Source: Deltaproteobacteria bacterium
Lineage (GTDB): Bacteria > Desulfobacterota > B13-G15 > RBG-16-54-18
Direction: 5' to 3'
Assembly: GCA_016927065.1 (NCBI GenBank)
Contig: JAFGNJ010000027.1
Span: 36,506-100,505, forward strand
Length of the DNA: 64,000 nt
Part shown: one piece after another, positions 9,206 through 49,475 of the stretch
Position numbering within the stretch: position 1 is the stretch's first letter
Layout of the letters: the number at the start of each line of letters is the position of its first letter
Notes under the pieces: generated by a model
Database searches by the model: none
What the model was told of the DNA's origin: nothing
What the model saw: only the letters and a program-made list of their open reading frames with translations
Made by a program: the position numbers and the translations under genes

Positions 9206-10522
9206 CTATCCCCCTTTCTTTCCCTTGCTTGAAGAGAAGACTCGCTTATATATTACAGTAACATACTTGAGATGGCTATTCAAGTCGAAAACCCCTTGGA
9301 TTTCTTTCACGCTCAGCATAGCGGTGATATCCTTGTCATTCTGGACTAATTGTAGAAAATCCGCTTGCTCTCTCCACGCCCGCATGGCATTACGCTGCAC
9401 CCAGTGGTAGGCATCCCCTCGCGCAACACCCTTCCTGATGAGGGCCAAGAGGAGCTGCTGAGAGGCAATAAGCCCCTTGGTCAGATCGAGGTTCTTCTTC
9501 ATCCGGTCGGGATATACCACCAGTCCCTTGATGATATGGGTGAGCCGAGCAAGCATGTAATCCACGAGGATGGTGCTGTCCGGGGCGATGACTCGCTCCA
9601 CCGAGGAGTGGCTGATGTCCCGTTCGTGCCAGAGGGGGATGTTCTCCAGAGAAGCGAGGGAATTGGCCCTTACCAGTCGGGCCAGGCCGGAGAGATTCTC
9701 CGACCCGATAGGGTTTCTCTTGTGGGGCATGGCTGAAGAGCCCTTTTGACCTTCGGCGAATGGTTCCTCGGCCTCCATGACCTCGGTGCGTTGCAGGTGG
9801 CGGATCTCCACGGCGAACTTTTCTATTGAGGAAGCGATCAACGCCAGGGCCGTGAAGAATTCGGCATGCCTATCCCGTTGGATAATCTGTGAAGAAACGG
9901 GGTCGGGGGTGAGCCCCAGTTTTTTACAGACGTATGCCTCCACAGCCGGAGGGGCGTTGGCAAAGGTGCCCACGGCACCCGATAGTTTGCCCACGCTGAT
10001 GGCTGCGATGGCCCGTTCCATGCGCCCTCGGTTGCGGTGCATCTCCTCGTACCAGAGGGCCATCTTGAGGCCGAAGGTGATGGGCTCGGCGTGCACGCCA
10101 TGGGTCCGGCCGATCATGGCCGTCTCTTTATATTTAAAGGCCTTTTCCTTGATCGCCTCCATGAGGTTATTGATGTCTTCAATGATGATTCGTCCCGCCT
10201 CCCGGAGTCTCAGTGAGAGGGCGGTGTCGACGATATCGTAGGAGGTGAGCCCGAAATGGATATACCTTCCCGCATCGCCCACTGTTTCTTCCAATTGGCC
10301 CACGAAAGCGGCAACGTCGTGTTTGGTCTCGTGCTCGATTTCTTCAATGCGTTGAGTGTCGATGTGCGCCCGTTTTTTGATCTGTTGCACGGCCTCAGAA
10401 GGGATCTCTCCCAGCTCGGCCCAGGCCTCGCAGGCCAAGATCTCCACCTTAAGCCAGGTCTGATATTTATGCTCCTCGCTCCAGAGCGCCCCCATCTTTT
10501 CTCTCGTGTATCGCGAGATCAC
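9206..10522 (-). CDS. purB: adenylosuccinate lyase
   Basis: Fumarate-lyase signature SSAMPHKRNP and TSYDIVDTA motif; 438 aa. Confidence 0.95.
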   Translation of the reverse strand: MISRYTREKMGALWSEEHKYQTWLKVEILACEAWAELGEIPSEAVQQIKKRAHIDTQRIEEIEHETKHDVAAFVGQLEETVGDAGRYIHFGLTSYDIVDTALSLRLREAGRIIIEDINNLMEAIKEKAFKYKETAMIGRTHGVHAEPITFGLKMALWYEEMHRNRGRMERAIAAISVGKLSGAVGTFANAPPAVEAYVCKKLGLTPDPVSSQIIQRDRHAEFFTALALIASSIEKFAVEIRHLQRTEVMEAEEPFAEGQKGSSAMPHKRNPIGSENLSGLARLVRANSLASLENIPLWHERDISHSSVERVIAPDSTILVDYMLARLTHIIKGLVVYPDRMKKNLDLTKGLIASQQLLLALIRKGVARGDAYHWVQRNAMRAWREQADFLQLVQNDKDITAMLSVKEIQGVFDLNSHLKYVTVIYKRVFSSSKGKKGG

Positions 10523-10626
10523 CGTTATCGCTCCTTATCTGTTGATTACTTAACTCTAAGGGAGAAGGGGAGAGTTGTCAATGTGAAAATAGAAAGCGCC
10601 AAGGCATGCCGTTTTATACGGTAACC

Positions 10627-10655
10627 TTGACACCCCTTTGAGGCCCTGTTAGATT
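10627..10655 (+). promoter_or_regulatory. sigma70-like promoter (TTGACA - 17 nt - TAGATT) upstream of the GalT-like operon
   Basis: Hexamers and spacing read directly; about 40 nt upstream of the ATG at 10693. Confidence 0.35.
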
Positions 10656-10692
10656 GTTTTCATTGTGCTGAATCTTTCAGAGGAGTTGCAGA

Positions 10693-11718
10693 ATGGGAAT
10701 AGCCTTTAAGGGACGGTTCCAAAACGCGAAAATCTTGGATCCGAAAACGGGATATGAAGAAACAACACTAACCTTGGAAACGAGGTGGGACCCCCTGACG
10801 AAGCGGTCGGTAAGGGTCCTCGATCTCCCCATTAAAAAGCTTGCTACCATGGATATTGATGAAATTCTGAAAAGGGCAGAGGATATTCCGTGTCCCTTTT
10901 GCCCCGATGCTTTGGACGAGGTCACCCCCCGTTTTCCGAATGATTTCATCGAGGGGGGGAGGCTGTGCTTTGGCGAGGTCTGTATTATCCCCAATAGACT
11001 TCCCTTTGATCGATACTGTGCCGTCGTTGTGCTCACTCATCAGCACTATGTTCCTCTCGTCGATTTTACCGAGGAGCAGCTTTTTAACGGGTTTTCCACC
11101 GCCTGTGTCTTCCTGCGCAGGCTCGTAGAGGTGGATTCCTCGGTACGCTTCTTTTCCATCAACTGGAATTATCTCCCCATGTCGGGGGGGAGCATTATCC
11201 ATCCCCACCTTCAAATCATTGGGGGAGATCTCCCGACACACTACCAAGGAGAGATGATCCGGGGGGCGAGGGAATATCGCCAGCAATGGGAAGCTTCTTT
11301 TTGGGATGAGTTAATCGCTAAGGAAAAGGAACTTGGAGAGCGTTATATTGGTGCTGTCGGCAATACGGTGTGGCTGGCGAGCTATGCGCCGTTTGGCTTG
11401 GGTGATACTATGGCCGTTTTTCGTGAACGGACTTCCCTTCTCAATCTCACTGATCAGGATCTGAGAGATTTTACCCAAGGTCTGCTCAAGGTTTTCCGGT
11501 ATTATCAGGAATTCAATTACTATAGTTTCAACCTTAGTCTCTATTCTGGTGAATACGGCGGTGATGACTCCTTTTGGGTAAACGCCAGGATGCTGGCAAG
11601 GAGGTTATTGCCTCCGGTGGGGGCGAGCGATGTCAGTTACTTTGAGAAGTTGCACGGGGAGCCGATCGCATACAAAAGACCTGAACGGCAGTGCGAGGAG
11701 ATGCGAGGGTATTTCTAG
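10693..11718 (+). CDS. GalT-like HIT-superfamily nucleotidyltransferase (galactose-1-phosphate uridylyltransferase family)
   Basis: CPFC zinc-site motif and HPH active-site motif (SIIHPHLQIIGG). Confidence 0.7.
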   Translation: MGIAFKGRFQNAKILDPKTGYEETTLTLETRWDPLTKRSVRVLDLPIKKLATMDIDEILKRAEDIPCPFCPDALDEVTPRFPNDFIEGGRLCFGEVCIIPNRLPFDRYCAVVVLTHQHYVPLVDFTEEQLFNGFSTACVFLRRLVEVDSSVRFFSINWNYLPMSGGSIIHPHLQIIGGDLPTHYQGEMIRGAREYRQQWEASFWDELIAKEKELGERYIGAVGNTVWLASYAPFGLGDTMAVFRERTSLLNLTDQDLRDFTQGLLKVFRYYQEFNYYSFNLSLYSGEYGGDDSFWVNARMLARRLLPPVGASDVSYFEKLHGEPIAYKRPERQCEEMRGYF

Positions 11719-11919
11719 AGACTGTTTTTAGATGCCTGTTGAAAAGTGTTCCGTGGAACAGCAGCCCTCAATATCCGTAGCATCGTGGCGTTCTTCACTA
11801 CCTACGGCCTTGAGTTTAGATGAATTCCCCTCTCCTCGAAACGGCATGACATTGCTGCTGTCAGGGGTGGGGCAAGGACGATCCCTCAGGGGGTTGTTCC
11901 CGTTGCAGGGGAGCGAAAG

Positions 11920-13032
11920 ATGATATTACCCAACGAGGTCTATGTAGATTCCGCTTTGGAGACTCATCCGGTTGTCCATCGGATACGGCAAGGGCTTGAT
12001 CATCTCCCGTGGCATTCCCGAGGCGATCTCGACAGGGTGATTCAGGATGTCCTCTCCTACCAATCGGATCCCTGTGCTGCGGGGAAACAAATTCTCTGTA
12101 TCCGACCTTACCAGGGAAAACTGGTGAAGGATTGCCCTGGGACCATAGGGCACATCTGCTGCGGCTACAAGATCATCAACGTCATGACCAATTGCCCCCT
12201 CGATTGTTCGTACTGCATCCTCCAAACCTATTTGAACAACCCCTGTCTGACACTCTATCCAGAATTCACACGAATTTTCAGTGAAATAGACGAGATCCTG
12301 GATGCGCATCCTCATCGGATCTTTAGGTTTGGCACGGGGGAATTGGGGGACAGCCTGGCCCTCGATGGTATCGTCCGTTTTGCCGATGAGGCCGTCCCCC
12401 TTTTCGCTCGAAAGCTAAACGCGATCTTTGAGATCAAGACCAAGGCCTGTTCAGTGGATCACCTCCTTACCCTGAACCATGGGGGAAGGACCGTGTGCTC
12501 CTGGTCCCTCAATCCACCAACTGTGATAGAAGGAGAAGAGCATAGGGCAGCCTCCCTTGAGGAACGTTTGCGGGCGGCAAGCCGCTGCGCTGATGCGGGG
12601 TATCACGTGGGATTTCACTTTGACCCCCTCATCGCTTATCCGGGATGGGATGATGACTATCGCAGGGTGGTGGACCTCCTCTTTGAGCACATCGAACCCT
12701 GCAGGGCCATCTGGGTGAGTCTCGGTGCACTGCGCTGTTCCACCTCACTGAAACAGGTAGCCCAAGAGCGATTCCCGACCTCGCGTATATTCTCCGGCGA
12801 GTTGATACGGGGCGAGGATGGAAAGTTACGCTACCTCAAGCCCCTCAGGGTAGCGATGTACCGGCATATGGTCTCGTGGCTGAGATCCTATGACGCGGAA
12901 CTCTTTATTTATCTTTGTATGGAGCGGGATGACGTCTGGCAGGAGGTCTTCGGCACCAGCCCGGGGAGCACCGCGGGTCTCAACAGCTGGTTTGAGGAAC
13001 GCGTTCGGCAATTCACCGAAGGTGGACAATGA
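11920..13032 (+). CDS. radical SAM protein, spore photoproduct lyase (SplB) family
   Basis: CPLDCSYC radical SAM cysteine triad (CxxxCxxC) in SplB-like context. Confidence 0.75.
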   Translation: MILPNEVYVDSALETHPVVHRIRQGLDHLPWHSRGDLDRVIQDVLSYQSDPCAAGKQILCIRPYQGKLVKDCPGTIGHICCGYKIINVMTNCPLDCSYCILQTYLNNPCLTLYPEFTRIFSEIDEILDAHPHRIFRFGTGELGDSLALDGIVRFADEAVPLFARKLNAIFEIKTKACSVDHLLTLNHGGRTVCSWSLNPPTVIEGEEHRAASLEERLRAASRCADAGYHVGFHFDPLIAYPGWDDDYRRVVDLLFEHIEPCRAIWVSLGALRCSTSLKQVAQERFPTSRIFSGELIRGEDGKLRYLKPLRVAMYRHMVSWLRSYDAELFIYLCMERDDVWQEVFGTSPGSTAGLNSWFEERVRQFTEGGQ

Positions 13033-14003
13033 CCACAGCGGTGGGCCTCATCTCAGGGGGACTCGACAGCATCCTGGCTGCACGACTCATCCTCGAACAG
13101 GGGATTAAGATTCAAGGGGTGTCGTTCATCACCCCTTTTTTCAATTCCAAAGGCGCGGAGCGGGCAGCCCAGGCAGTGGGTATTCCCCTCCAGGTCCTGG
13201 ATATTACCGAGCCCCACCTTGCCATGTTGCGTAAACCCAAACATGGATACGGCAACAACATGAACCCTTGCATAGACTGTCATATACTCATGCTCAAAGA
13301 GGCGGGGAGGGTGATGGAAGAGGGAGGATATGATTTCCTCTTTACCGGCGAGGTGCTAGGACAGCGCCCCATGTCCCAGAACAAGGCTTCCTTGCGGGTT
13401 GTAGAGCGGGAGTCGGGGTATGAGGGGTTGGTCCTGCGTCCGCTCAGCGCCCAGCTCCTTCCCGAGACCATGCCGGAGCACGCAGGAAAGGTCGACAGGG
13501 AACAGCTTGTGGGGATCAAAGGGCGCTCCCGGAAGGAGCAGATGGAGTTGGCCAAGCGATACCATATTACGGAGTATCTCTCACCTGCCGGAGGGTGCCT
13601 CCTTACCGATCCTATCTTTTCCCGTCGCCTGGGGGATCTCTTCCGGCGTCCTGAGCCAGTCCAGATCAGGGACATAGAACTCCTGAAGATCGGCCGGCAC
13701 CTACGCCTTTCCCCTGCGGTGAAGCTGATCGTGGGGAGGCACGCACAGGACAATGAAAGGATATCGACGATGGTTATTCCCAAAGATGATCTCCTCAAGG
13801 TGGAAAAATACCCTGGCCCCCTCTGCCTCATCCCGTATGGCGGTGCATCAGAGGATATCGCACAGGCCGCCTCCATTTGTCTGAGATACAGTGATGCCCC
13901 CTCGGATGAAGAAGTGACGGTGTTGCGAAGAAGGGGAGGGGAGGAATGCCGGATAAAGGCGCGATCGTGCCCTGTGTCCTTACCTTCAGAGTTGATGATT
14001 TAG
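13029..14003 (+). CDS. PP-loop ATP pyrophosphatase, MnmA/ThiI-like tRNA thiolation family
   Basis: PP-loop SGGLDS near N-terminus, NPCIDCH cysteine motif; 4-nt overlap with upstream radical SAM gene. Confidence 0.7.
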   Translation: MTTAVGLISGGLDSILAARLILEQGIKIQGVSFITPFFNSKGAERAAQAVGIPLQVLDITEPHLAMLRKPKHGYGNNMNPCIDCHILMLKEAGRVMEEGGYDFLFTGEVLGQRPMSQNKASLRVVERESGYEGLVLRPLSAQLLPETMPEHAGKVDREQLVGIKGRSRKEQMELAKRYHITEYLSPAGGCLLTDPIFSRRLGDLFRRPEPVQIRDIELLKIGRHLRLSPAVKLIVGRHAQDNERISTMVIPKDDLLKVEKYPGPLCLIPYGGASEDIAQAASICLRYSDAPSDEEVTVLRRRGGEECRIKARSCPVSLPSELMI

Positions 14004-14071
14004 AAAAAAGATTCAACATATTTTTTTTGAGTCGTAACATACAGGATAAGTTAAAAGGGAGGTGTAGCAGC

Positions 14072-15406
14072 ATGGGGAAACAGTCTATTCTCGGATATGC
14101 TTTGATGATCTTTTTTGTAGCCGTTCTTTGCCTCCCTGCCTCTTCCGCAGGCAGCGATCCGTGTTGTCCGCTCAACGAGGAACTGAGATATCTCCTCCAG
14201 CCTCCATCAGAGGTCCGGTTCTCTTATCAAGTCCGTCATGAGACCTTTTTTTCCGCTTCTTTGGGAAAGGAGAAGAATTTTTTTCTCATCCTCCCTCCCG
14301 AATTTGATCCCCAGTCAGCTGAGCGATACCCTCTCCTTATACTTTTACATGGGTACGATTTTCACCGCAACGGAGGGGGGACGGTGTGCGATCCCAAGGC
14401 CGCCCTTGATATCCTGTGCCGCGAGGCGGAGGAGGAATATCACTGGCTCCTCTGGGAGGAGATCGCCCCTATTGCCGCAGCCATGATGGCAGAACGGAAT
14501 AAGACTTATAAGGACCTCAAGGAGGATTTGCAGGCTCGCTTCGAAGAACTTACGCACTATGGTGGCCTGGGAGCACAGGATTCCAGCCCCGCTGATATCG
14601 CCGTCTCATTGGTTGAGCACAACCTCCACCCTTTCGGCGGCATCGATGATTCCTTTCATCCTATCCGCAAGATGATCATCCTGCTCCCTGATGGCGATAA
14701 CAGCTTTTATACGGACGAGGACGAAAGAAAAGGTCTCTTTCCCCCTACCAGCAACAGAGGCGCATGCGATGTCTTCTACCCAGAGGAGTGCCTGAGGATT
14801 ATAAACGTTCCCCGTCGTTACATGCGGCCCGGTGCGTTGGGGAGATACGAGAGTTATATTATTGAGTTGATGGAGTACCTCCGCAATAAATCCTCTCTGA
14901 AAGGCAAACTCTTTCCACCTCCGCATACAGGGATCGGCGGTTTCTCTATGGGGGGATTCGGCGCCTTGCAGATCGCCCTGCGGCATTCTGAATTGTTCCG
15001 CTCGGTGAGCAGCCAGAGCGGGTTGGTCGATATAGAGCTTCTCACGAACAAGGTAGTTCTTAAGACTACAATGCCCGAGTTCTTGGAGGTCTTTGGTTAT
15101 CTTGCACCTTTGGCCCTTCCGAGCAGCTCGACAATCAATGAGGCCTATCGGAGGGCCCACAACCCGGTGCGCCTGATCAGAGAAGGCAAGGGAAAAGAGT
15201 TATGGGCAAAAATTTATTTCGACTATGGGTCAGGGGAGCGTCTGTCGTCCATCATGGATGGGAACAAGAGATTAGAAGAGGTCCTCGGCGTCAACGGTCG
15301 GATGATCTCAGTACAATCCTATAATGGAAAAGCGGGACACAATTACCTCTTTTGGCGGTCGAGGTTGGGGAACGTGCTCGAACACCACTCGCGGTGTTTG
15401 AGGTAA
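14072..15406 (+). CDS. secreted alpha/beta-hydrolase fold esterase
   Basis: Signal peptide MGKQSILGYALMIFFVAVLCLPASSA; nucleophile elbow GFSMGGFGA; longest ORF from 13946 overlaps upstream gene. Confidence 0.7.
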   Translation: MGKQSILGYALMIFFVAVLCLPASSAGSDPCCPLNEELRYLLQPPSEVRFSYQVRHETFFSASLGKEKNFFLILPPEFDPQSAERYPLLILLHGYDFHRNGGGTVCDPKAALDILCREAEEEYHWLLWEEIAPIAAAMMAERNKTYKDLKEDLQARFEELTHYGGLGAQDSSPADIAVSLVEHNLHPFGGIDDSFHPIRKMIILLPDGDNSFYTDEDERKGLFPPTSNRGACDVFYPEECLRIINVPRRYMRPGALGRYESYIIELMEYLRNKSSLKGKLFPPPHTGIGGFSMGGFGALQIALRHSELFRSVSSQSGLVDIELLTNKVVLKTTMPEFLEVFGYLAPLALPSSSTINEAYRRAHNPVRLIREGKGKELWAKIYFDYGSGERLSSIMDGNKRLEEVLGVNGRMISVQSYNGKAGHNYLFWRSRLGNVLEHHSRCLR

Positions 15407-15410
15407 TATC

Positions 15411-16079
15411 TTATCTCTTTTTATACTCCTTTCTGATTTGCTTCATATCCTCCCACACATGCTTCTTGAACTGTGGATTTCGCAGGAGGAAGGCGGGGTG
15501 GTAGGTGGGCATGAGTTTGGCGCCGTGGTACGAGTGAAAACGTCCCCTGAGGGCGGATATTTTTTCTTCGGTCTCCAAGAGAGTCTGGGCCGCGAAGGTT
15601 CCTAAAGCGCAGATGATCTTGGGTCGGATGACTTCCAGCTGCTTGAGGAGAAAGGGGAGACAGGCTTGAATCTCATCGGGTCGGGGATCGCGGTTGTTTG
15701 GGGGGCGGCATTTCACGATGTTGGCAATGTATACCTCCTCCCTCGTCAGGTCGATGGCCTCGATGATGCGGGTGAGAAGTTCACCGGCCCTGCCGACAAA
15801 GGGCTTGCCCTGCAGATCCTCGTCTCTGCCAGGCCCCTCTCCAACAAAGACGAGGCGGGCGTGGGGGGTTCCTTCGCCGAAGACCAGATGGTTTCTCCCC
15901 TCATGGAGCCGGCACCTCGTGCACTCTCCTATTTCCCGTCTTACTACATTGAGATCCAGCACGGGTCTTTTTTTCTTTTGAGAAAGGAGGGTATTGATCC
16001 CCAGTTCCTTCTGATATCTCAGATGCCCCTTTATCTGGGTGACGATCTGCCTTAATTCGCGATGGATGTCTTCTTTCAT
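15411..16079 (-). CDS. uracil-DNA glycosylase, family 4
   Basis: Motifs GEGPGRDEDLQGKPFVGRAG and CRPPNNR; Cys cluster CTRC. Confidence 0.9.
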   Translation of the reverse strand: MKEDIHRELRQIVTQIKGHLRYQKELGINTLLSQKKKRPVLDLNVVRREIGECTRCRLHEGRNHLVFGEGTPHARLVFVGEGPGRDEDLQGKPFVGRAGELLTRIIEAIDLTREEVYIANIVKCRPPNNRDPRPDEIQACLPFLLKQLEVIRPKIICALGTFAAQTLLETEEKISALRGRFHSYHGAKLMPTYHPAFLLRNPQFKKHVWEDMKQIRKEYKKR

Positions 16080-17474: not shown

Positions 17475-18851
17475 GTGGAGATCGTGGACATAAACGAAAG
17501 ACAAGTATTACAAACCGTGCGATCTTCCGACTTTCCTGATGCGACGTTCTATCAGCATCTTTCTCTCGGCACAAAAAAATTCCACAATAAGGAGTATGAG
17601 AAGGCCATCAGTGAATGGCAGGAGGCTGCCAAGCTTCGTCCTGATTTTTCAGAAATGACGGCTCTATCGGAATCCGCCTCTTTTCGGAGCAGACTTGATG
17701 ATGTCCCTCTGTTGGGACTTTTATATATACTGTTCTCCTATGCTTTCACCGGCGTGGCCTCCATTCACAGTGAGGATACCCACAAAGAGGTATTTTTTAA
17801 AGAGGGGTGGATCGTTTTCGCCCGTACCACCAGATCTGAAGAGCGTCTCGGCAATTTTCTGAGCCGGAGAGAATACCTTGCTTCATTCAATATGGAGGAT
17901 GTTGTTACACAGGCTAAGGAAAGTGGGGAGAAGCTCGGCACGTTCTTGGTAAAAGGTGGTTTGCTCTCTGAAAAAGAGCTTCTCGAATTATTGGATTTCC
18001 AAATCAAAGAAATTCTTGCCGACCTTTTTTCATGGAATGAAGGAGAGTTTTTTTTCGAACAAGGAGAGGTGTCAGAGGATGATGTGGTGGTAAGTTACAC
18101 CCCCCTGGACATAGCACTCTTTACCGCCAGGAGGGCCCTTGATTTCTCCACGTTCAGAAGGATGATCCCTAATAATAAGATCATCTTTCGTATTCCCCCC
18201 TACATTGAGAATGACAAAACGAGGGTTATGGAAGAACTCGATGCCAATGAGAAGTTCATTTTTTCCTTGATAGATGGCAACAGGAATGTTGACCAGCTGA
18301 TTAAGTTTAGCGGGGATGAGGAAATCTCAGTTATTAATATTCTCTATCGTTTGGTGCTGATGGGCCTTACTAAAAAGACGAAGGATATCGGCACATATGA
18401 AGACAAAGAATTTGCGGAGGTTTCCCGATTTTTGAGGACCTTTTTAGAGGTCTTCAGGCTGGTGTTGGACGGTTTAAAAAAGGAATTGGGGGCTAGGAGT
18501 AGAGGGGTGATAGATAAGGCCCTGGAACAATTGACTGTAGACTATGGCAAGCTATTTCAGGGGGTAGCGATAGACAAAATCCTCCCCCCAGATGAAAACA
18601 AGATCCTCAAGAATATTTCCCTCTACTATCCAGACCCGTCTGAACGTGCGATCTTTATTGATGGTTTTTACACATTAATAAAAAATATTTTACAAGAGAT
18701 GGCCTCTATACTAGGGATGCCCCTGACAAAACGAGTGGTTGCGGAGATCGGTAGGATCAGATGGGACATCTATCGATTTTACACCGATTCACCCATGAAA
18801 AGAAAGGTACTGGAGGCCTTTGATAAAATCGTAGCTCAGTATCCCAAGTGA
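17475..18851 (+). CDS. hypothetical protein with DUF4388-like domains
   Basis: Repeated pattern resembling DUF4388 (GWIVFARTT...GNFL...GLLSEKELLELL); GTG start. Confidence 0.55.
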   Translation: MEIVDINERQVLQTVRSSDFPDATFYQHLSLGTKKFHNKEYEKAISEWQEAAKLRPDFSEMTALSESASFRSRLDDVPLLGLLYILFSYAFTGVASIHSEDTHKEVFFKEGWIVFARTTRSEERLGNFLSRREYLASFNMEDVVTQAKESGEKLGTFLVKGGLLSEKELLELLDFQIKEILADLFSWNEGEFFFEQGEVSEDDVVVSYTPLDIALFTARRALDFSTFRRMIPNNKIIFRIPPYIENDKTRVMEELDANEKFIFSLIDGNRNVDQLIKFSGDEEISVINILYRLVLMGLTKKTKDIGTYEDKEFAEVSRFLRTFLEVFRLVLDGLKKELGARSRGVIDKALEQLTVDYGKLFQGVAIDKILPPDENKILKNISLYYPDPSERAIFIDGFYTLIKNILQEMASILGMPLTKRVVAEIGRIRWDIYRFYTDSPMKRKVLEAFDKIVAQYPK

Positions 18852-39887: not shown

Positions 39888-40565
39888 ATGAATTTTTTCG
39901 ATTACGGCTTAATTAAATCATTTATTCAGGCATTTCGATACCAAGGGCCGGTAGTGGAGATTGGATCTTTAGTGGTAGACGAAAGTATGAAAGTTTTTGA
40001 TGTGAGGAGTCTATTTCCAAAGAAGAGCTTTTCTGGGGTGGATTTACGGCACGGTGCTGGAGTCGATATCATGGGTGATATTGAAGGATTACCCTTTCAG
40101 CAACATTCTATTGGTACGCTCCTGTGTCTTGACACCATCGAGCATGTCTGGGATGTCCATGCCGCTTTTAAAGAGATAAAAAGGGTATTAAAAAAGGATG
40201 GAATCGCCGTGATTTCCTCCGTATTCAATTTTAAGATTCACGCGTGTCCCCACGATTTTTGGCGGTTTACCCCTGAAGCCTTAGATAGACTCACCAAGGG
40301 TTTCCCGTACAAAATCTTAGGATATCAAGGATATCGAAAACGACCGAGGCATGTTTTTACCGTCGTCTTTGGCAAGGAGTATCGCACTCAAGATATTGAG
40401 AGTCAGATAACGGAATTTAAAAAGTTACTTCAAGGAGAGGCAGTTAGATATTTTTCGGTCTTTGACAGGATGCGTCACTATATTGCTAGCCTCTTTGCCA
40501 AGAAACCGCTCATGGATTTTAGGTACTATAACCACATAGAGGTTCTTCACAAGATTAAGGTTTGA
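39888..40565 (+). CDS. class I SAM-dependent methyltransferase
   Basis: Methyltransferase-fold motifs (VEIGS..., LDTIEHVWD, LKKDGIAVIS). Confidence 0.65.
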   Translation: MNFFDYGLIKSFIQAFRYQGPVVEIGSLVVDESMKVFDVRSLFPKKSFSGVDLRHGAGVDIMGDIEGLPFQQHSIGTLLCLDTIEHVWDVHAAFKEIKRVLKKDGIAVISSVFNFKIHACPHDFWRFTPEALDRLTKGFPYKILGYQGYRKRPRHVFTVVFGKEYRTQDIESQITEFKKLLQGEAVRYFSVFDRMRHYIASLFAKKPLMDFRYYNHIEVLHKIKV

Positions 40566-40592
40566 TTATTCCCTACATTAGGGGAGATTGCC

Positions 40593-41180
40593 ATGAATGT
40601 GACAAAAGCAATAAAAAGGACAATTATTCCTCCTGACCCCTTTTTTATGAATAACAACAAGCTTTATAAAAAGTATCAAATTGGCGATTGGACATATGGT
40701 ACCCCTAAGGTGTTCTCATGGCGTGAAGGTACGACCTTAAAGATTGGACGGTTCTGTGCAATTGCTGATGGTGTAATAATTTTATTGGGCGGAGAACACA
40801 GGATAGATTGGGTGACCACCTACCCGTTTACTAAGCTCTTTCCGAAGGCCAAGGGGTTTACGGGCCATCCTCGTTCCAGAGGTAATGTTATTATAAAAAA
40901 TGATGTGTGGATTGGTACAGATGCATTAATCCTATCGGGCGTTACGATAGGTAACGGCGCTGTGATAGCTGCCCGTAGTGTTGTCAAGGAAAATGTGTTA
41001 CCTTATTCAATAGTTGCTGGGAATCCAGCAAAGCATATTAAGTTTCGGTTTAGTAAGTCAATAATAGATGATTTACAGAAAATTGCGTGGTGGAATTGGC
41101 CTTTGTCAAAAATTGAGGAAGCATGGCCATTGTTGCTTTCGTCGGATATAGGAGCATTTGTAGACAAGTATAAAGCGTGA
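40593..41180 (+). CDS. hexapeptide-repeat acetyltransferase (left-handed beta-helix)
   Basis: Hexapeptide repeats VWIGTDALILSGVTIGNGAVIAARSVV, NPAKHI C-terminus. Confidence 0.8.
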   Translation: MNVTKAIKRTIIPPDPFFMNNNKLYKKYQIGDWTYGTPKVFSWREGTTLKIGRFCAIADGVIILLGGEHRIDWVTTYPFTKLFPKAKGFTGHPRSRGNVIIKNDVWIGTDALILSGVTIGNGAVIAARSVVKENVLPYSIVAGNPAKHIKFRFSKSIIDDLQKIAWWNWPLSKIEEAWPLLLSSDIGAFVDKYKA

Positions 41181-41318
41181 ACACTGTTTGATGCTTTTGA
41201 CGATCAATATGTACATGCAAAAATTATTATAGCAAAATTGAAAAATTAAGAATGAGATCGTCAAAAAAGTTTCTAACGATCAACAGAGATGCCATGATTT
41301 TGTAATAACTAAGGTGAT

Positions 41319-41930
41319 TTGATGATAACTTGGAGTCAGCTTGTCAAAGGTCGCGATCAGATCCACGAGCGCTATCCTACGATATGGGGACTAATGTTGA
41401 TCAAAAGGCCCTCCAGATTGGCAAAGAGTAGGTATGCGCATCCGCGATGTGGGGAGAATAGAAGAATTGACAATAGAGTGAAACATATTTATCCTGATAT
41501 CTGTTATGAAAATATGTATGAAGATCAAAAATTGCTTCATGATTATTAGTCATTAGATGCGATTGATGGGTAATTTGATCTCATTATACTTTTGAAAGCC
41601 ATAGAACATTTGGAGCTGGGAGAAGGGATGACGATGTTAAGCCGGCTCAATGAATTGCTCGTAGATGGAGGTAGGTTGGTTATCAGTGCTCCCAATATTT
41701 TTAACCCCAGCCGGTTTTGGTTTAAAGCGACTCACAAGGTAGCCTATAGCTATGAAGAGTTGGGAGGGATTGTACTTGGTCAGAGCTTTGATGTATCGGG
41801 AATTTATCGTACCTCTAATGATTCCTTTTTAAAGTATTTTTGGCGTCTTACCCTCATTTGTTTCCCGCCTAGAATTTTATATAAGGATTTTGTCAAATCA
41901 ATTCTTATTACGACCTGCAAAAGAGGTTGA
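41319..41930 (+). pseudogene. decayed copy of the locus-specific methyltransferase paralog (intact at 44697 and 47091)
   Basis: Two short ORFs with near-identical nucleotide stretches to 44697..45335 but missing the SAM-binding middle and broken frame. Confidence 0.6.
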
Positions 41931-42016
41931 TCTATAGTTCATCGCAAGGTGTGAGTGGATAAGAACATGATAGAAGCCAATCACTTGATTAAAAAACTCT
42001 TAAAAGGAGATAACAG

Positions 42017-42736
42017 GTGAATGTGAAAGAACTTTCAATTTTTATCAATAACACCCAAAGAGACTTGTACAATTTTATTTATCAAAAAATTTTTGTTAAT
42101 TTTAAATTAAAGAAAAATGTCATTGACCATTTTCATAAACTTTATTATGAATCACATAAAGTAACTTGGGAAAACACATTTTGGTTAGGTATTCAAGCCC
42201 ATAAATGCCCTTTAGATCTCTGGATTTACCAAGAGATTATCTTTGAGATTAAGCCAGATATAATAATAGAATGTGGAACATTTCATGGTGGAAGTGCTTT
42301 GTTTTTAGCATCTATATGTGATTTGTTAAATAAGGGGAAAATTATTTCTATAGATATAGAAAACAAAAAAGACAGACCAAAACATGAAAGAATCACATAT
42401 TTACTTGGTTCTTCAACTTCTGAAGAAATCGTAGAGAAAGTTCAAATCTTCATAAAAAACATTGATAGGATTATGGTCATTTTGGATTCAGATCATAGCA
42501 AAGAACATGTCCTAAGGGAATTAGAAATTTATAGTAAATTTGTGACAAAAGGCAGTTATATCATTGTTGAGGACACAAACATTAATGGCCATCCTATAGG
42601 ACCAGACTTTGGGCCAGGTCCGATGGAGGCAGTTAAGGAATTTTTAAAGATGAAAAGAGATTTTGCCATAGATAAGTCAAGAGAAAAATTTTATCTAACT
42701 TTTAATCCAGATGGATATCTCAAAAGGGTAAGATGA
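42017..42736 (+). CDS. CmcI-family (cephalosporin hydroxylase-like) sugar O-methyltransferase
   Basis: ECGTFHGGSALFLA motif; strongly AT-rich coding; GTG start. Confidence 0.65.
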   Translation: MNVKELSIFINNTQRDLYNFIYQKIFVNFKLKKNVIDHFHKLYYESHKVTWENTFWLGIQAHKCPLDLWIYQEIIFEIKPDIIIECGTFHGGSALFLASICDLLNKGKIISIDIENKKDRPKHERITYLLGSSTSEEIVEKVQIFIKNIDRIMVILDSDHSKEHVLRELEIYSKFVTKGSYIIVEDTNINGHPIGPDFGPGPMEAVKEFLKMKRDFAIDKSREKFYLTFNPDGYLKRVR

Positions 42737-42803
42737 CAAGAAGAAAATACTTTTTCGTCTGAACTACCAAAAGAAGATATCTTTTTATCTGAACTATTGT
42801 GAA

Positions 42804-43463
42804 ATGGATAGTAAACGAAGGAACTTATATTATTTCAGCGTTCGAAATGATCTTATCCGACTTATCCCTCTCCATGCAAAACGAATTTTAGAAGTGGGAT
42901 GTGCAGGTGGTATGACCGGGAAAGCATTAAGGGAGAAAGGATTTAAAGAAATTGTAGGTATTGAGGTCAATAGAAAAATCGCTCAAAAAGGGAAATTGTA
43001 TTACGATAAATTAATTATTGGAGATGTAGAGAAAATAAAACTTCCATTTGAAAAAGGGCATTTCGATTGTATTCTATATGGTGATGTCTTAGAGCATTTG
43101 GTGGATCCGTGGAAAGTGTTAAAAGAGCACAACGCATTGTTAAAGTTGGAGGGGGTCATTATCTGTAGTATCCCGAACGTACGACATTACAAGATTATCA
43201 AAAAACTGGTCTTCAGTGGAACTTGGGAGTATACTGAGTATGGGATATTGGATAGAACCCATCTCCGTTTTTTCACACTGGATTCAATTAGAAAGATGTT
43301 AAGAGAGACGGGTTTTGAGATCAGAGATTTGATAAAGCGCCCTTCGGGCGCAAAATGGTTGAAGGTTTTAAATCGACTTTTAAAGAATCTAATAATTAAT
43401 TTTTTGGTGGGGCAATATACGGTTGTGGCGGTAAAAAGAGAAGAGGCGGAAGGTAGCGTATAG
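42804..43463 (+). CDS. class I SAM-dependent methyltransferase
   Basis: Motif I ILEVGCAGGMTG, motif post-II GDVLEHLVDP. Confidence 0.8.
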   Translation: MDSKRRNLYYFSVRNDLIRLIPLHAKRILEVGCAGGMTGKALREKGFKEIVGIEVNRKIAQKGKLYYDKLIIGDVEKIKLPFEKGHFDCILYGDVLEHLVDPWKVLKEHNALLKLEGVIICSIPNVRHYKIIKKLVFSGTWEYTEYGILDRTHLRFFTLDSIRKMLRETGFEIRDLIKRPSGAKWLKVLNRLLKNLIINFLVGQYTVVAVKREEAEGSV

Positions 43464-43626
43464 TCAAGATGGGCATTTCGGCTCGATGTTAAAAAAAATT
43501 GCTTGCATCTCGCTGATCTCCTTGATGCGACAATTTTTGATATTTTGATATTAATATTTTTAAAAATAGTTCGTATGAGGGGTCATATAACTTCTCATTT
43601 GACAAATCTTCTTCGAACGGGCAAAG

Positions 43627-44538
43627 ATGGCTGAACTTCAGGTAAGCATTGTCATTCCATGCTACAATAGCGCAAAATTTATTGATACAACCTTGCAAGC
43701 AGTATTCAATAGTACTTACAAGGACTTCGAGGTACTAGTTATAGACGATGGTTCCACAGATGGTACCAAGAAGGTTTTACAAGAGAAAGGTTGGATCAAA
43801 AAGGTCCGATACGTTTACCAGGAAAACAAAGGCATAGCTGGTGCACGCAATGCGGGGATTACAATCGCTCAAGGGAAATACATAAGTCTTTTAGATCATG
43901 ATGACCAACCGTTACCTGAAAAATTGGAAAGAATGGTTTCTTACCTGAATAACCACCCTGAATTTAAGATGGCTTACTCGCCATGTATTATTGAACGTAT
44001 TGATAAAGGTGGAGAGCGCTATAAACAGGGTATATACTCATCACATACGCCCCGTTGGCTTCGAAACAAGTATGAAGGTGATCTTTTTGAAAATCTATTT
44101 TATATGCGCATTCTTATTACCAGTGTTCTTATGTATAAGGAGGCGGCTTTGGCCGTCGGTCTTTTTGACGAAACCTTTAAGGTATGTGAAGATCTAGAGT
44201 TCTACTTGAGATTTGGCGCACAGTATAGAATTGGTTTTATTAAAGAACCTTGCAATGTTCATATCGAACACTTTTCAAATAGCAGCAAGCATTTTGCCGA
44301 TTTATACCCTACCTATGCAATTCTTGCGTATAATCGTCACTATCAAAGCCTAAAAAAGAAAAGTTCCAGGGCCGAAAAGATTTATCGTGAGCGCATGACA
44401 GCTGCCTACAGAGGGCTTGCAGACGTATCATTAAAGAACGACAATAGAAAGGGCGCAAGAAAATATGCTGTTGATGCAATCCGCATGAATCCATACCATC
44501 CGAAATATTATTTTAAAATGTTTAAAACTTGGCTATGA
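43627..44538 (+). CDS. glycosyltransferase family 2
   Basis: VSIVIPCYNSAKFI...VLVIDDGSTDGT, DxD-like DHDD. Confidence 0.85.
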   Translation: MAELQVSIVIPCYNSAKFIDTTLQAVFNSTYKDFEVLVIDDGSTDGTKKVLQEKGWIKKVRYVYQENKGIAGARNAGITIAQGKYISLLDHDDQPLPEKLERMVSYLNNHPEFKMAYSPCIIERIDKGGERYKQGIYSSHTPRWLRNKYEGDLFENLFYMRILITSVLMYKEAALAVGLFDETFKVCEDLEFYLRFGAQYRIGFIKEPCNVHIEHFSNSSKHFADLYPTYAILAYNRHYQSLKKKSSRAEKIYRERMTAAYRGLADVSLKNDNRKGARKYAVDAIRMNPYHPKYYFKMFKTWL

Positions 44539-44696
44539 ATTGAGCAAGAAAGTGTTCTTGGAAATTTTTGATATTGGGAAATATGTTCAACATCATCTGG
44601 TAAACAGAAGAACAAGCTAGCTTTTTAGTACAAAAGTGTTTTAATAAACTATCCTACACTGAGTTAGTAAGAAACAGACAAATATAGAGGGGTAGT

Positions 44697-45335
44697 ATGT
44701 TAGATATGTTATATTGGAGTCAGCTTGTCAAAGGTCGCGATCAGATCCACGAACGATATCCTACGATATGGGGTTTACGGTTAATCAAGAGACCCTCCAG
44801 GTTGGTTAAAACCCTTCTTCGTCCAGGTATGCGCATCCTTGATGTCGGCGCGAGTGACAGAAGGATGGAGAGAGGAATTAAGGAGATTTACCCTAACGTT
44901 ATTTACAAAAGCATGGATGTTGATCGCGGATTGCCTCATGATTATTATACTTTGGATGGAATAAATGAGCAGTTCGATCTTATTATGCTTTTTGAAGTTA
45001 TAGAGCATCTGGAGTTGGAAGTAGGGATAAAAATGTTAAGTCGGCTCAATGAATTGCTCGTACATGGAGGTAGGTTGGTTATCAGTACTCCCAATATTTT
45101 TAACCCCAGCCGATTTTGGTTCGATGCGACTCACAAGGTAGCCTATAGCTATGAAGAGTTGGGAGGGATTTTGCTTGGTCAGGGGTTTGAAGTACTGGAT
45201 ATCTACCGCACCTTTAACGCTTCATTTCCAAAGTATTTTGTGCGCCTCACCCTTTTCTACCCCTTGCATAGGATTTTAAATGTAGATTTTGCCAAGTCTA
45301 TTGTATTTCTGGCCCAAAAAAGAGGGAACCGGTGA
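44697..45335 (+). CDS. methyltransferase-fold protein, locus-specific paralog family (copy 2)
   Basis: ILDVGASDRRMERG motif I-like, EVIEHLE motif; paralog of 47091 and of the decayed copy at 41319. Confidence 0.65.
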   Translation: MLDMLYWSQLVKGRDQIHERYPTIWGLRLIKRPSRLVKTLLRPGMRILDVGASDRRMERGIKEIYPNVIYKSMDVDRGLPHDYYTLDGINEQFDLIMLFEVIEHLELEVGIKMLSRLNELLVHGGRLVISTPNIFNPSRFWFDATHKVAYSYEELGGILLGQGFEVLDIYRTFNASFPKYFVRLTLFYPLHRILNVDFAKSIVFLAQKRGNR

Positions 45336-45380
45336 TGAGAAAATATTACCTTCATATACCAACAGCAAGCAGAGTGATGT

Positions 45381-45986
45381 ATGCGCATTGCTTATAAACT
45401 ATCAAAATTCTTTTTTAAATTGGCCAATCAAAAGCAGGTTATCGAATGGGTAAAAATATATGGTGCGTTTGATAAGACTAATTACGAAGATTATACAATA
45501 CGCAATCTTAAGAGCGAGTCCTCAATCTACCATGGCGAGCTTATTAAATGGGCACAAGACATTATGCCTTCTCCTCGCAAAGTTTTACTATCAGGTGATT
45601 GCAACAACCCCGCACAATTTGTGCAGGAAAAAATTCGAGCTAAGGAGATGTACACAGCAGGTCTATTAGATGTTGATTTCAAATGGGGTTTCGATGAAGA
45701 TCCTCCCACAATGGGCCAGTTTGACCTTATTATCAGTCAAGCAATTTTGGAGCATCTGCTAAATCCTTATAAGCATATGCACGATCTGGCTGGTCTTTTG
45801 GTGCCTGATGGTTATTTGATAGTGCATACTGTAATCCCTGGTTTTTGATATCATCGATATCCTATTGATGCCTTTCGTTTTTTCCCTGACTGGTTTGAAG
45901 AAATAGCGAAGAGGTTAAATTTTTCGATAGTTAAAAAAAGAATCAAACGGACCCACATATTTTATATGTATAAAAAAATCAGTTAA
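45381..45986 (+). pseudogene. methyltransferase-fold-like ORF interrupted by an in-frame TGA at 45846-45848
   Basis: Reading frame continues through the TGA for 45 more codons to TAA at 45984; TGA replaces a likely Trp codon. Confidence 0.5.
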
Positions 45987-46060
45987 GAGCAGGAAAGATT
46001 TGAATGTAGAAGAGCTTTGATTTGCTATGTGTATTATAAAACTAAGACACAAGGGTGACA

Positions 46061-47044
46061 ATGAAGGTAACCATCTTACTCTCGCGTAATGCTGGTACAA
46101 GATATCGATTTCCTCAGTTTATACAAGCCCTTACCAGAGAAGGAATACAGGCAGAAATATATAGGTTTCAATCTTCTCTTCCACTTTTTCTTAAGTTGTT
46201 ACAAGATTTGAAGAAAGCAGATATCGTAGTAATATTGAGAAAACTCTTATCACCATGGAAACAGCAGTTAATCCGAAGATTCGCAAAAAAAATTGTTTTT
46301 GAATATGATGATTCAATTATGTATCGATCTTCACGTTGGGAGAATCAATACTCCCGTACCCGGAGAGCACGATTTAAAGATATGGTGAAGATATGCGACC
46401 TCATCATTGCTGGCAATCAATTTCTCAAGGGAGAAGCGACGAAGTACGTGAATGAGGAAAAAGTGCATGTTATACCCACGGTCGTTGATATTGAAAGATA
46501 TGTACGAAAGCAATATCATGATTCAAAAGATGAAGTGATAATTGGCTGGTTTGGAAGCAAGGGGACCCTCTATTACCTCAAGAAACTTGTTCCGGCGCTT
46601 ACAGAAATCGGCAAAAGATTTCCCTTTGCTCAATTGAAGATCGTATGCAATGATTTTCTTGATATCCCCAATATGAAAGTGATAAAAAAAGAATGGTCAG
46701 AAACGGATGAGGTTGCTGATCTTCAGAGCTTTGATATCGGGTTGGGTCCTTTGACGGATGATGTATGGACACGAGGTAAGTGTGGTCTGAAACTGGTTCA
46801 ATATCTAGCAGTGGGGATCCCAGTCATTTGTTCCCCGGTAGGAGCGAATAAGGAAATTGTTAGCGATGGTGATGTTGGATTATGGGCCCGGGATACGCGG
46901 GAATGGATAGAGAAACTTAGTTTACTCATTGAAAAACCAGAGATGAGAAAAAAGATGGGGGAAAAAGGAAGAGAGAGAATAGAGAAGCAATATTCTCTTC
47001 AGGCCGTTGCCCCTAAATTAATTGATATACTAAGCAGATTGTGA
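46061..47044 (+). CDS. GT-B fold glycosyltransferase (GT4-like), paralog of 48477
   Basis: Similarity to 48477 protein (YSRTR...FLK..A.K, WFGSKGTLYYL vs WIGDHGSIHYL); ATG 46061 preceded by AAGGGTGA. Confidence 0.75.
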   Translation: MKVTILLSRNAGTRYRFPQFIQALTREGIQAEIYRFQSSLPLFLKLLQDLKKADIVVILRKLLSPWKQQLIRRFAKKIVFEYDDSIMYRSSRWENQYSRTRRARFKDMVKICDLIIAGNQFLKGEATKYVNEEKVHVIPTVVDIERYVRKQYHDSKDEVIIGWFGSKGTLYYLKKLVPALTEIGKRFPFAQLKIVCNDFLDIPNMKVIKKEWSETDEVADLQSFDIGLGPLTDDVWTRGKCGLKLVQYLAVGIPVICSPVGANKEIVSDGDVGLWARDTREWIEKLSLLIEKPEMRKKMGEKGRERIEKQYSLQAVAPKLIDILSRL

Positions 47045-47090
47045 AATATCTTTTTAAGATAATTGGAATGTCTATTTCCAAGGAATAACG

Positions 47091-47741
47091 ATGTTGGACT
47101 GGAGTCAAATAATTCATTATCGTGATCAAATTCATGAACGTTATCGGAAGATATGGAACATTCCTTTGATTAAGAGACGGTTTAGCCTCTTAGAGAGAAA
47201 CATTCGTCCTGGGATGCGCCTTCTCGATGTGGGGGCTGGAGAGCGAGGGATGGAAGATAAGATCGTGAAAAAACACAATGGAGTAATATACAAAAGTATG
47301 GACATAGATCGTCGTCTCCACCATGACTATTACTCGCTAGATGATATTGATGAACAGTTTGATCTTGTTTTGCTCCTCGATGTCATTGAGCATGTGGAGT
47401 TGGAGGAAGGGGTGAAGATGTTACAGCGAATCAATGAACTCCTCGTCGATGGTGGGAATTTGATTATCAATACGCCGAACATATTTAATCCTAATCGTTT
47501 TTGGTTAGATGCTACTCATAAAGTGGCATACAGCTATGAGGAGCTGGGTGGTATCTTGCTCAGCCAAAGCTTCGATGTGTTGGAAATCTATCGTACCTAT
47601 AATGATTCATTCCCAAAGTATATTCTCCGCCTTACACTTTGTTATCCCCTGCATAGAATGTTAAATGTTGATTTTGCAAAATCTATTATAATCTTGGCGA
47701 GCAAGAAGAAGGATACTGTAGAAGTACGGGTGTCTGAATGA
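47091..47741 (+). CDS. methyltransferase-fold protein, locus-specific paralog family (copy 3)
   Basis: Full-length similarity to 44697 protein; LLDVGAGERGMED motif I. Confidence 0.65.
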   Translation: MLDWSQIIHYRDQIHERYRKIWNIPLIKRRFSLLERNIRPGMRLLDVGAGERGMEDKIVKKHNGVIYKSMDIDRRLHHDYYSLDDIDEQFDLVLLLDVIEHVELEEGVKMLQRINELLVDGGNLIINTPNIFNPNRFWLDATHKVAYSYEELGGILLSQSFDVLEIYRTYNDSFPKYILRLTLCYPLHRMLNVDFAKSIIILASKKKDTVEVRVSE

Positions 47742-48469
47742 GCGTTAGTAGAATAAGGGCCCATAATTTGGTAATAGAAATCCTGAAAAATGCGGGAAAG
47801 CCAGGAAAAATTCTGGATGCTCCTGCGGGAACCGGTACAATATCTAAAACATTGCAGGATGCAGGATTTGAAGTCTATGCCGCTGATATAACACCTGAGT
47901 TGTTTAAGCTTCCAGATATTCATTGTGAGAAGGCAGACCTCAATTCCCGTCTCCCTTATAAGGATGGATTTTTTGATTATATTTTAAATTCCAATGGTAT
48001 TGAACATCTGGAGGACCAGTATAATTTTGTCCGGGAGTGTTACCGGATTCTAAAGCCAAACGGCAAACTACTTATCACGACCCCTAATATCCTGAACTTA
48101 AAAGCGCGGGTTGCATATATGTTACTTGGCTTCCATACGTTTCATGATAGACCCCACGATGAAGTAGGTGATTACGAGGGCGGCGGGCATATTAATATGG
48201 CCTCCTACTTCGATTTGCGAGTAAATCTGCACAGAAACGGGTTTAAAATCATCTCAATTTCAACGCATATGTACAGTGCTACTGCTCTGTTTTTTTCCTT
48301 TCTTGTTCCGTTTGTGTATGTGATGATGTTTAAATCCTTTAAGAGAGAAAAGAATAGAGAACAGAGAGTGAGGAACAAAGACATCGCAAAACATGTTTTA
48401 TCAGCCGATCTTCTGTTTGGTAAAAAGCTTTTTGTGCTCGCAGAAAAAGATCACCGTTATAAAAAATAG
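47738..48469 (+). CDS. class I SAM-dependent methyltransferase
   Basis: Motif I ILDAPAGTGTIS, YRILKPNGKLLITTPN. Confidence 0.8.
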   Translation: MSVSRIRAHNLVIEILKNAGKPGKILDAPAGTGTISKTLQDAGFEVYAADITPELFKLPDIHCEKADLNSRLPYKDGFFDYILNSNGIEHLEDQYNFVRECYRILKPNGKLLITTPNILNLKARVAYMLLGFHTFHDRPHDEVGDYEGGGHINMASYFDLRVNLHRNGFKIISISTHMYSATALFFSFLVPFVYVMMFKSFKREKNREQRVRNKDIAKHVLSADLLFGKKLFVLAEKDHRYKK

Positions 48470-48476
48470 TTACGCT

Positions 48477-49475
48477 ATGCGAGTTCTCTTTCTCATCCAA
48501 GGTTGGGATGTAGCAGCTAGTCGGTATAGAGTACTTCAATATCTGCCATATCTGGAGAAAAGGGGGGTCGAGACCCACGTAGCCACGTATCCCAGGGGTA
48601 TTACCGACTTTGCAACGTTCTTGAGGAGGGTTGCAGATTATGATGTGCTCTTTCTTCAGAGAAAAAGATATAATCCACCTTTTTTGCAGCTTTTACGCTG
48701 GAGGGCACAGGGGATCGTGTATGACTTTGACGATGCTGTGATGTATAGAAACTCTACGGCGCCATCACCTTACTCCAGAACCCGTCAGAAAAGATTTGCC
48801 CGTATCATAAGGGCCGCAGATTATGTCATTGCTGGTAATAATTTCTTGAAAGATCAAGCTTCGAAATTTACCGAACAGGTAACTGTGATACCTACGTCAA
48901 TTGACCGGGATCGATATGATGTTAAAGACTACCAAGAAAAAAAGAACAGGGTATCGATCGGGTGGATCGGAGATCACGGGAGCATCCACTATCTGCAAAA
49001 AATGCGGTCTATCTTTGAAAAACTGGGCAGGAGATATCCTGACCTCGAGCTTAAAATCATCTGCGATACCTTCTTTGACTGTAAAAACATTGAGGTTGTC
49101 AAAAAGCCGTGGAGCCAGAAAGAAGAGGTTGAGGACTTGAAAAGCCTAGACATCGGTGTGATGCCTCTCTTGGATGATCCCTGGTCGTGGGGCAAATGTG
49201 GACTCAAGATACTGCAGTATTATGGAGTAGGAGTGCCGGTAGTCTGCACGCCCGTGGGTGTCAACAGGGATGTGGTACAAAATGGGGTGAACGGTTTTTG
49301 GGCCATGACCAATGACGAATGGATTGAGAAGCTCTCCGTATTGATTGAAGACCCTTCCCTGCGGCAAAAGATGGGGTTACGAGGCCGAGAGTTGGTGAGA
49401 AAGTCATATTCCATACAAGGGTGTGCGTCAATATTTTATGGGGTGTTGGATGAGGTGGCCCGTGGGGGTGTCTGA
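48477..49475 (+). CDS. GT-B fold glycosyltransferase (GT4-like), paralog of 46061
   Basis: Paralog of 46061 protein; ATG at 48477. Confidence 0.75.
   Translation: MRVLFLIQGWDVAASRYRVLQYLPYLEKRGVETHVATYPRGITDFATFLRRVADYDVLFLQRKRYNPPFLQLLRWRAQGIVYDFDDAVMYRNSTAPSPYSRTRQKRFARIIRAADYVIAGNNFLKDQASKFTEQVTVIPTSIDRDRYDVKDYQEKKNRVSIGWIGDHGSIHYLQKMRSIFEKLGRRYPDLELKIICDTFFDCKNIEVVKKPWSQKEEVEDLKSLDIGVMPLLDDPWSWGKCGLKILQYYGVGVPVVCTPVGVNRDVVQNGVNGFWAMTNDEWIEKLSVLIEDPSLRQKMGLRGRELVRKSYSIQGCASIFYGVLDEVARGGV

Follow-up and report, generated by a model that had tools for sequence, protein, structure and literature searches.

The GalT-like, SPL-fold radical SAM and ThiI-NFACT-R genes of an uncultured Thermodesulfobacteriota clade: probably a lineage-specific operon of three separate processes

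For the fusion of a ThiI domain with DUF814 (NFACT-R), Burroughs & Aravind predicted in 2014 a role as an alternative synthetase of tRNA 4-thiouridine (PMC4075521). According to these authors, the family lacks the THUMP and rhodanese domains, retains the PP-loop, a CxxC plus an internal cysteine and a GRxRxxQ loop motif, and has a phyletic distribution nearly mutually exclusive with that of canonical ThiI. The phyla they give include the delta-proteobacteria, and TusA is the sole conserved neighbour they report, a frequent one but not a universal one (PMC4075521). Our literature search found no experimental paper on this family after the 2014 prediction. Regarding spore photoproduct lyase (SPL), the gene contexts reported for SplB-like genes are of the SOS/ImuB-C kind and are not those of the radical SAM family studied here (PMC3765255). 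Furthermore, there is an experimental precedent for a ParB homologue that activates a thymine-modifying enzyme on double-stranded DNA (PMC13229309). Here we analyse three genes in a stretch of 64,000 nucleotides (nt) from the deltaproteobacterial contig JAFGNJ010000027.1, called the window below: a GalT-like HIT gene (gene 1, 10693-11718), an SPL-fold radical SAM gene (gene 2, 11920-13032) and a ThiI-NFACT-R PP-loop gene (gene 3, 13029-14003).

We consider, with a probability of about 68%, that this trio is a lineage-specific operon of an uncultured Thermodesulfobacteriota clade and that its three enzymes belong to separate processes. This reading is based on the single origin of the trio, on the other contexts in which each family is found at similar distances, on the variable genes in the middle of the cluster and on the ordinary appearance of the orthologues. 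The three open reading frames (ORFs), all on the + strand, encode 341, 370 and 324 amino acids, and they are real genes, since each of the proteins has many homologues. The layout given in the initial annotation, three genes on one strand with the last two overlapping by 4 nt, was confirmed: the ATGA at 13029-13032 contains both the stop codon of the radical SAM gene and the start codon of the PP-loop gene.

In order to analyse gene neighbourhoods, one genome per GTDB species was scanned with an alignment of the radical SAM homologues, and at least 580 genomes had a relative. The 80 closest of these loci, each with 10-kb flanks, formed our sample. GalT-like and ThiI-NFACT-R genes were near the radical SAM gene in only 7 of the 80 loci (L001-L006 and L025; tblastn with the three window proteins), all of them with a radical SAM identity to the window of at least 53%, and the other 73 had neither gene within the flanks. 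The clade also includes two metagenome contigs, L090 and L091. In a neighbour-joining tree the window and the 7 loci formed one monophyletic clade nested within clades whose radical SAM gene is linked to a ParB-like gene, which makes the trio a derived state, confined to one lineage. The remaining two families have contexts of their own. GalT-like homologues at 63%, 40% and 40% identity had unrelated neighbours (LplA-like, AMP-binding ligase and ferredoxin/NADH-dehydrogenase genes). Members of the ThiI-NFACT-R family with 56-60% identity had greA after them or a LysM gene before them, and no radical SAM or GalT-like gene nearby. The initial annotation had considered plausible a joint role of the three genes in nucleic-acid or nucleotide-cofactor modification or repair, and had proposed gene-neighbourhood conservation as a check. 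The check did not bear this out: the trio is restricted to one clade, where the genes are usually separated, and outside it the radical SAM gene is found with a ParB/Noc-like gene and the other two with unrelated neighbours.

This ParB/Noc-like gene emerged from the clustering of the flanking ORFs. A protein of around 330 amino acids, encoded immediately upstream of the radical SAM gene on the same strand in 62 of the 80 loci, matched ParB_N and the Noc/ParB N-terminal and helix-turn-helix regions. With a profile search the number rose to 64 of the 80, all of them among the 68 loci outside the clade whose upstream sequence is long enough for a judgement (for example, L009:8784-9749 followed by the radical SAM gene at 10001-11080, and L007:8867-9841 followed by 9998-11077). 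Since the clade is nested among such loci, we take the ParB/Noc-like protein to be the ancestral and general partner of the radical SAM family. Neither tblastn nor the profile search found such a gene in the window or in the 7 clade loci, and a hidden or degraded copy in the window was rejected, since neither the 62 ParB-like proteins used as tblastn queries nor a profile hidden Markov model run over the six-frame ORFs revealed one. The literature searched held no description of the ParB-like and SPL-like pair and turned up unrelated ParB papers. We also observed that the pair (L007-L080) spans Thermodesulfobacteriota, KSB1, Clostridia, Aerophobetes and other groups, and that in the ParB-like partner the GERR box of ParB is retained as GFRR. 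Relatives are labelled Thermodesulfobacteriota.

Inside the clade the usual gene order is GalT-like, SagB-like nitroreductase, NTPase, in some loci a DnaJ-like gene, radical SAM and ThiI. Three loci (L025, L001 and L002) had the nitroreductase (SagB family, TIGR03605, 127 bits) and the NTPase (PRK13695, 183 bits) between the GalT-like and radical SAM genes, whereas L004, L005 and the metagenome contig L090 had the DnaJ-like gene in addition. L091 is truncated at its upstream end and has a DnaJ-like gene before the radical SAM gene, L006 is without the nitroreductase, and both L003 and the window are without the nitroreductase and the NTPase. The extra genes lie at L025:8860-9992, L001:8860-9985, L002:5079-6225, L004:7649-9509 and L090:5184-6996. 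The NTPase of these sister genomes is of the THEP1 type (PRK13695). No homologue of the nitroreductase, the NTPase or the DnaJ-like protein was found anywhere in the window, so their relocation within it was rejected. In the window the corresponding position is a spacer of 200 nt (11719-11919, without strand). Because most related genomes carry two or three extra genes there, the spacer is probably a deletion scar, the middle genes having been lost. A riboswitch, a small RNA or a terminator in the spacer was also considered and rejected, as it has no Rfam match at E <= 1, no terminator-like site and a fold no better than that of shuffled sequences (z-score +0.43).

Regarding the individual proteins, gene 3 is a member of the ThiI+NFACT-R family and, from its sequence, a predicted tRNA 4-thiouridine synthetase of the alternative type. 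The Pfam scan of its 324 amino acids found ThiI (3.4e-10, residues 3-139) and NFACT-R_2 (PF18297, residues 222-305, 8.3e-20, 71 bits, cutoff 26.9) and no further domain, neither THUMP nor rhodanese, and its only PDB matches were the ThiI structures 4kr6 and 2c5s. The protein carries SGGLDS at residues 9-14, NPCIDCH at 79-85, the cysteines C81xxC84 and C190 (in GGC190) and the loop motif G164RSRKEQ170. Against the MnmA equivalog it reached 19.7 bits, the cutoff being 284. The family is very large, as all of the 8000 candidates scored passed E 1e-5, and NCBI names its relatives tRNA 4-thiouridine(8) synthase ThiI. No TusA-like ORF, and no CPxP motif in a plausible ORF, was found in the 64-kb window or in the clade loci. 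The initial annotation did not recognise the trio as a described pathway, nor did it notice that the family of the PP-loop protein had already been described and its function predicted (PMC4075521).

Gene 2 is, judging from its sequence and its model, an enzyme with the SPL fold that belongs to a distinct uncharacterised subfamily and not to SPL itself. It matches the Pfam SPL family (1.8e-28), but against the SPL equivalog TIGR04070 it obtained 115.5 bits for a cutoff of 400, and only residues 86-290 were aligned. Its AlphaFold2 (AF2) model has a predicted local distance difference test (pLDDT) score of 88.2 and was matched by Foldseek to the SPL structures 4rh0/4fhe of G. thermodenitrificans with E 1e-20, template modelling (TM) scores of 0.76/0.83 and 21% identity over around 346 columns, the next-best PDB fold having E 3e-4. 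The radical SAM motif CPLDCSYC occupies residues 92-99, and its C92-x3-C96-x2-C99 is invariant in 14 homologues. However, in the HMMER alignment to 4rh0 the hydrogen-atom donor of SPL, Cys140, is aligned to Glu141, a residue that is invariant in the family within GTGELxDS. Similarly, the relay residue Tyr98 of SPL is aligned to Ile/Val100, whereas the equivalent of Tyr96 (Y98) is kept. A glutamate instead of Cys140 and an isoleucine or valine instead of Tyr98 indicate that gene 2 is unable to run the SPL catalytic cycle. The family has further invariant cysteines, C72, C80, C81 and C333 (in CPGT, CCGY and YLCME), and all its invariant motifs, CPGT..CCGY, CPxDCSYC, GTGELxDS, HFDP and YLCME, are present in the window protein. 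These four cysteines of the protein encoded at 11920-13032 could hold a second iron-sulfur cluster or a zinc ion.

Gene 1 is, from its sequence and model, a HIT-superfamily enzyme of the GalT branch and not a bona fide GalT. It is below the cutoffs of both the NCBIfam galT equivalog (PRK11720, 21.8 bits, cutoff 448) and Pfam DUF4931_N (21.8 bits, cutoff 24.1), and all its sequence matches in PDB had E > 0.1. Its AF2 model, built from 21 homologues with a pLDDT of 90.7, was matched best by Foldseek to the ADP-glucose phosphorylase At5g18200 (1z84, E 3e-17, TM score around 0.7), next to E. coli and human GalT, with E 1e-14 for 1hxq/1hxp, and then to DUF4931 and Ap4A phosphorylase. The motifs CPFC (residues 67-70) and HPH (170-172, within HPHLQ) are present, and C67, P68, F69, C70, H118, H170, P171 and H172 are invariant across the homologues; the enzyme should form a histidine-nucleoside monophosphate (NMP) intermediate. 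The family is small, with 205 matches in 5.8 billion sequences, and its hosts are Thermodesulfobacteriota, Dehalococcoidia and a few other groups. No Leloir-pathway context (galK/galE) was found for gene 1, whose neighbours here are purB and the radical SAM gene.

Taken together, the motifs quoted in the initial annotation (CPFC, HPH, CPLDCSYC, SGGLDS and NPCIDCH) were all present in the translations, and its calls of a GalT-like HIT protein, an SPL-family radical SAM and a ThiI/MnmA-like PP-loop protein were right at the level of fold or superfamily. The profile searches that it proposed in order to fix the families did so for gene 3, which was assigned to ThiI+NFACT-R, but left genes 1 and 2 below the galT and SPL equivalog cutoffs.

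If the three enzymes work separately, their roles can be proposed as follows. The ThiI-NFACT-R protein would most likely be a housekeeping enzyme, as its family membership suggests, whose PP-loop adenylates U8 of tRNA, after which sulfur would replace the oxygen; its three cysteines are probable ligands of a [4Fe-4S] cluster, and its NFACT-R domain would bind tRNA in place of THUMP. For the radical SAM family, the ParB/Noc-like partner together with the known base-flipping of DNA by SPL points to DNA as the likely substrate. The enzyme would most likely perform radical chemistry on a base flipped out as in SPL, without the Cys140/Tyr98 hydrogen-return relay. The GalT-fold enzyme should form its covalent histidine-NMP intermediate through the HPH motif and act on a nucleotide-sugar or dinucleotide substrate. 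Their adjacency in the window would be secondary, derived from an ancestral order of GalT-like, SagB-like nitroreductase, NTPase, in some cases DnaJ-like, radical SAM and ThiI genes by loss of the middle ones.

Several points weigh against three separate processes. The sample was limited to 10-kb flanks, the functional roles of all three families are predictions from sequence, and the ParB-like partner has been lost in the clade, at least locally, so that the radical SAM enzyme might have gained a new one. Moreover, the overlap between the radical SAM and ThiI genes is 4 nt in the window, L025, L002 and L090 and 7 nt in L004, and the cluster is kept down to around 53% radical SAM and 41% GalT-like identity, which is longer than random synteny might last. 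The last three of these points would also favour a functional module within the clade, in which the radical SAM enzyme exchanged its ParB/Noc-like partner for ThiI-NFACT-R and acts on tRNA or RNA, for instance on 4-thiouridine (s4U) or its photo-crosslink, while the GalT-like enzyme, together with the rest of the operon, provides or regenerates a nucleotide intermediate. Throughout the clade the stop codon of the radical SAM gene overlaps the ThiI start, and the cluster as a whole is compact: in L090, where the operon has six genes, most neighbours overlap by 4 nt. The ParB-like gene is missing both in the window and at the loci of the clade. There is also a thematic link, as s4U is a photosensor of ultraviolet A and SPL repairs a photoproduct. 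Nevertheless, we regard such a module as unlikely. It would have arisen once, in one clade, and did not recur independently in the 73 other radical SAM loci or in 5 ThiI loci; the genes between the GalT-like and radical SAM genes come and go; and the hosts are labelled as anaerobic sediment or subsurface lineages, where ultraviolet damage is improbable. Furthermore, the radical SAM and ThiI proteins of the clade keep all the family-invariant residues and the lengths of their families and look like ordinary orthologues, which supports separate processes. Bolder still, and in our opinion distinctly improbable, would be a scheme in which ThiI-NFACT-R has captured the radical SAM enzyme for a radical step on thiolated RNA, such as the reversal of the s4U8-C13 crosslink or a further modification of s4U. 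A separate and more probable proposal is that the ParB-like and SPL-like pair of at least 64 genomes would be an undescribed chromosomal system for the repair or modification of DNA bases.

The public names of these genes (UDPglucose--hexose-1-phosphate uridylyltransferase, spore photoproduct lyase / DNA photolyase and tRNA-specific 2-thiouridylase) and the matching folds would agree with galactose-1-phosphate uridylyltransferase, SPL and MnmA/ThiI in their classical jobs. This is very unlikely, since all three proteins are far below the respective galT, SPL and MnmA equivalog cutoffs, the catalytic Cys140 and Tyr98 of SPL are not conserved, the genes that directly adjoin the trio, purB and an esterase gene, are not gal genes, and the hosts are labelled Thermodesulfobacteriota, which are not known spore formers. 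A mobile anti-phage or DNA-modification defence island is hardly credible either. Each family can act on nucleic acids, and Dnd-type systems include ParB-like as well as PP-loop proteins, but PADLOC-DB gave no match at E <= 0.01 for any of the three proteins and a defence system was therefore rejected. The guanine-plus-cytosine (GC) content of the three genes is the same as that of the flanks, core genes surround the trio (purB, pyruvate kinase, uracil-DNA glycosylase and aminopeptidase), the synteny with purB is conserved in L001, L003 and L025, and no integrase, repeats or tRNA were found near the three genes.

The initial annotation also described a good sigma70-like promoter in front of the genes. 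A TTGACA-17 nt-TAGATT site with 10 of 12 consensus matches is indeed present at 10627-10655 on the + strand, in the divergent intergenic region common to purB and gene 1, but the region contains no more promoter-like sites than expected (3 observed, against 2.7 +/- 1.8 in shuffled sequence). As the count equals the shuffle expectation, the promoter was rejected as evidence of an operon: the match at 10627-10655 is weak evidence from sequence and by itself proves nothing of the kind.

Downstream of the trio, on the + strand, there is a secreted esterase-family gene (14073-15406, Pfam Esterase 6e-17). Its homologues, with 69-71% identity, follow the ThiI gene in L002 and L025; its synteny is restricted to the closest relatives, and a functional relation to the trio is improbable. 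In the ORF list the esterase gene runs from 13946 to 15406 and shares 58 nt with the end of the ThiI gene. The ATG at 14073 is likely its real start, as it is preceded by a Shine-Dalgarno-like GGGAGG and the N-terminus resembles a signal peptide. Next comes, convergently on the - strand, an ordinary-looking family-4 uracil-DNA glycosylase (15411-16079, TIGR00758, 222 bits), whose synteny was seen only in the closest relative examined (L025). Elsewhere in the window we observed a 458-amino-acid protein with a DUF4388 domain (17475-18851, PF14332, 3.8e-18) and a region at around 40000-49500 with a GC content of 0.35-0.40, compared with around 0.50 elsewhere, and a strong positive GC skew. Besides glycosyltransferases (GT2, GT4/GT1), this region encodes numerous SAM methyltransferases, a CmcI/rhamnosyl O-methyltransferase among them. 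It is probably an island for surface polysaccharides and may have been acquired horizontally.

The arrangement of the trio is thus a local feature of one uncultured lineage, defines no new pathway and matters little as such. Its genes add members to known superfamilies, the family of gene 3 and its predicted role have already been published, and the trio is no new system. The public names galT, spore photoproduct lyase / DNA photolyase and tRNA 2-thiouridylase are misleading for these genes. The more interesting lead is outside the window: a radical SAM family present in at least 580 species-level genomes, with the SPL fold and without the SPL catalytic cysteine, is almost always encoded behind a dedicated ParB/Noc-like gene, and the pair is a concrete candidate for a DNA repair or modification activity in anaerobes.

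Compared with the known systems, gene 3 resembles the ThiI+DUF814 family in its N-terminal ThiI-type PP-loop domain and C-terminal NFACT-R_2, in being without THUMP and rhodanese, and in its SGGLDS, CxxC plus internal cysteine and GRxRxxQ loop motif. It differs in having no TusA gene adjoining it or in the 64-kb window, and in being translationally coupled to an SPL-like radical SAM gene, an association that the authors did not report. Gene 1 shares with the GalT / ADP-glucose phosphorylase branch (At5g18200, E. coli GalT, DUF4931) the two-lobed GalT fold, the HPH(L)Q nucleotidyl-histidine motif and CPFC at the position of the zinc site, although it is 15-17% identical to them, has no significant match to a Pfam or NCBIfam family and belongs to a family whose gene context varies.

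Gene 2 shares with SplB (G. thermodenitrificans 4fhc/4rh0; TIGR04070) the full-length SPL fold, the CxxxCxxC motif and the equivalent of Tyr96. Unlike SplB, it is far under the equivalog cutoff and has an invariant glutamate at the Cys140 position and isoleucine or valine at that of Tyr98; its family has four extra invariant cysteines, its usual partner is ParB/Noc-like and its hosts are not labelled spore formers. As an analogy for this family at large, the ParB-dependent thymine dioxygenases of phages (PMC13229309) are also enzymes associated with a ParB homologue, as the radical SAM family is encoded beside a dedicated one, and they act on the C5-methyl region of thymine in DNA. They are, however, iron- and 2-oxoglutarate-dependent (Fe/2OG) dioxygenases instead of radical SAM enzymes and belong to phages, whereas the radical SAM genes have a chromosomal housekeeping context, from which, in the window, the ParB-like gene is missing.

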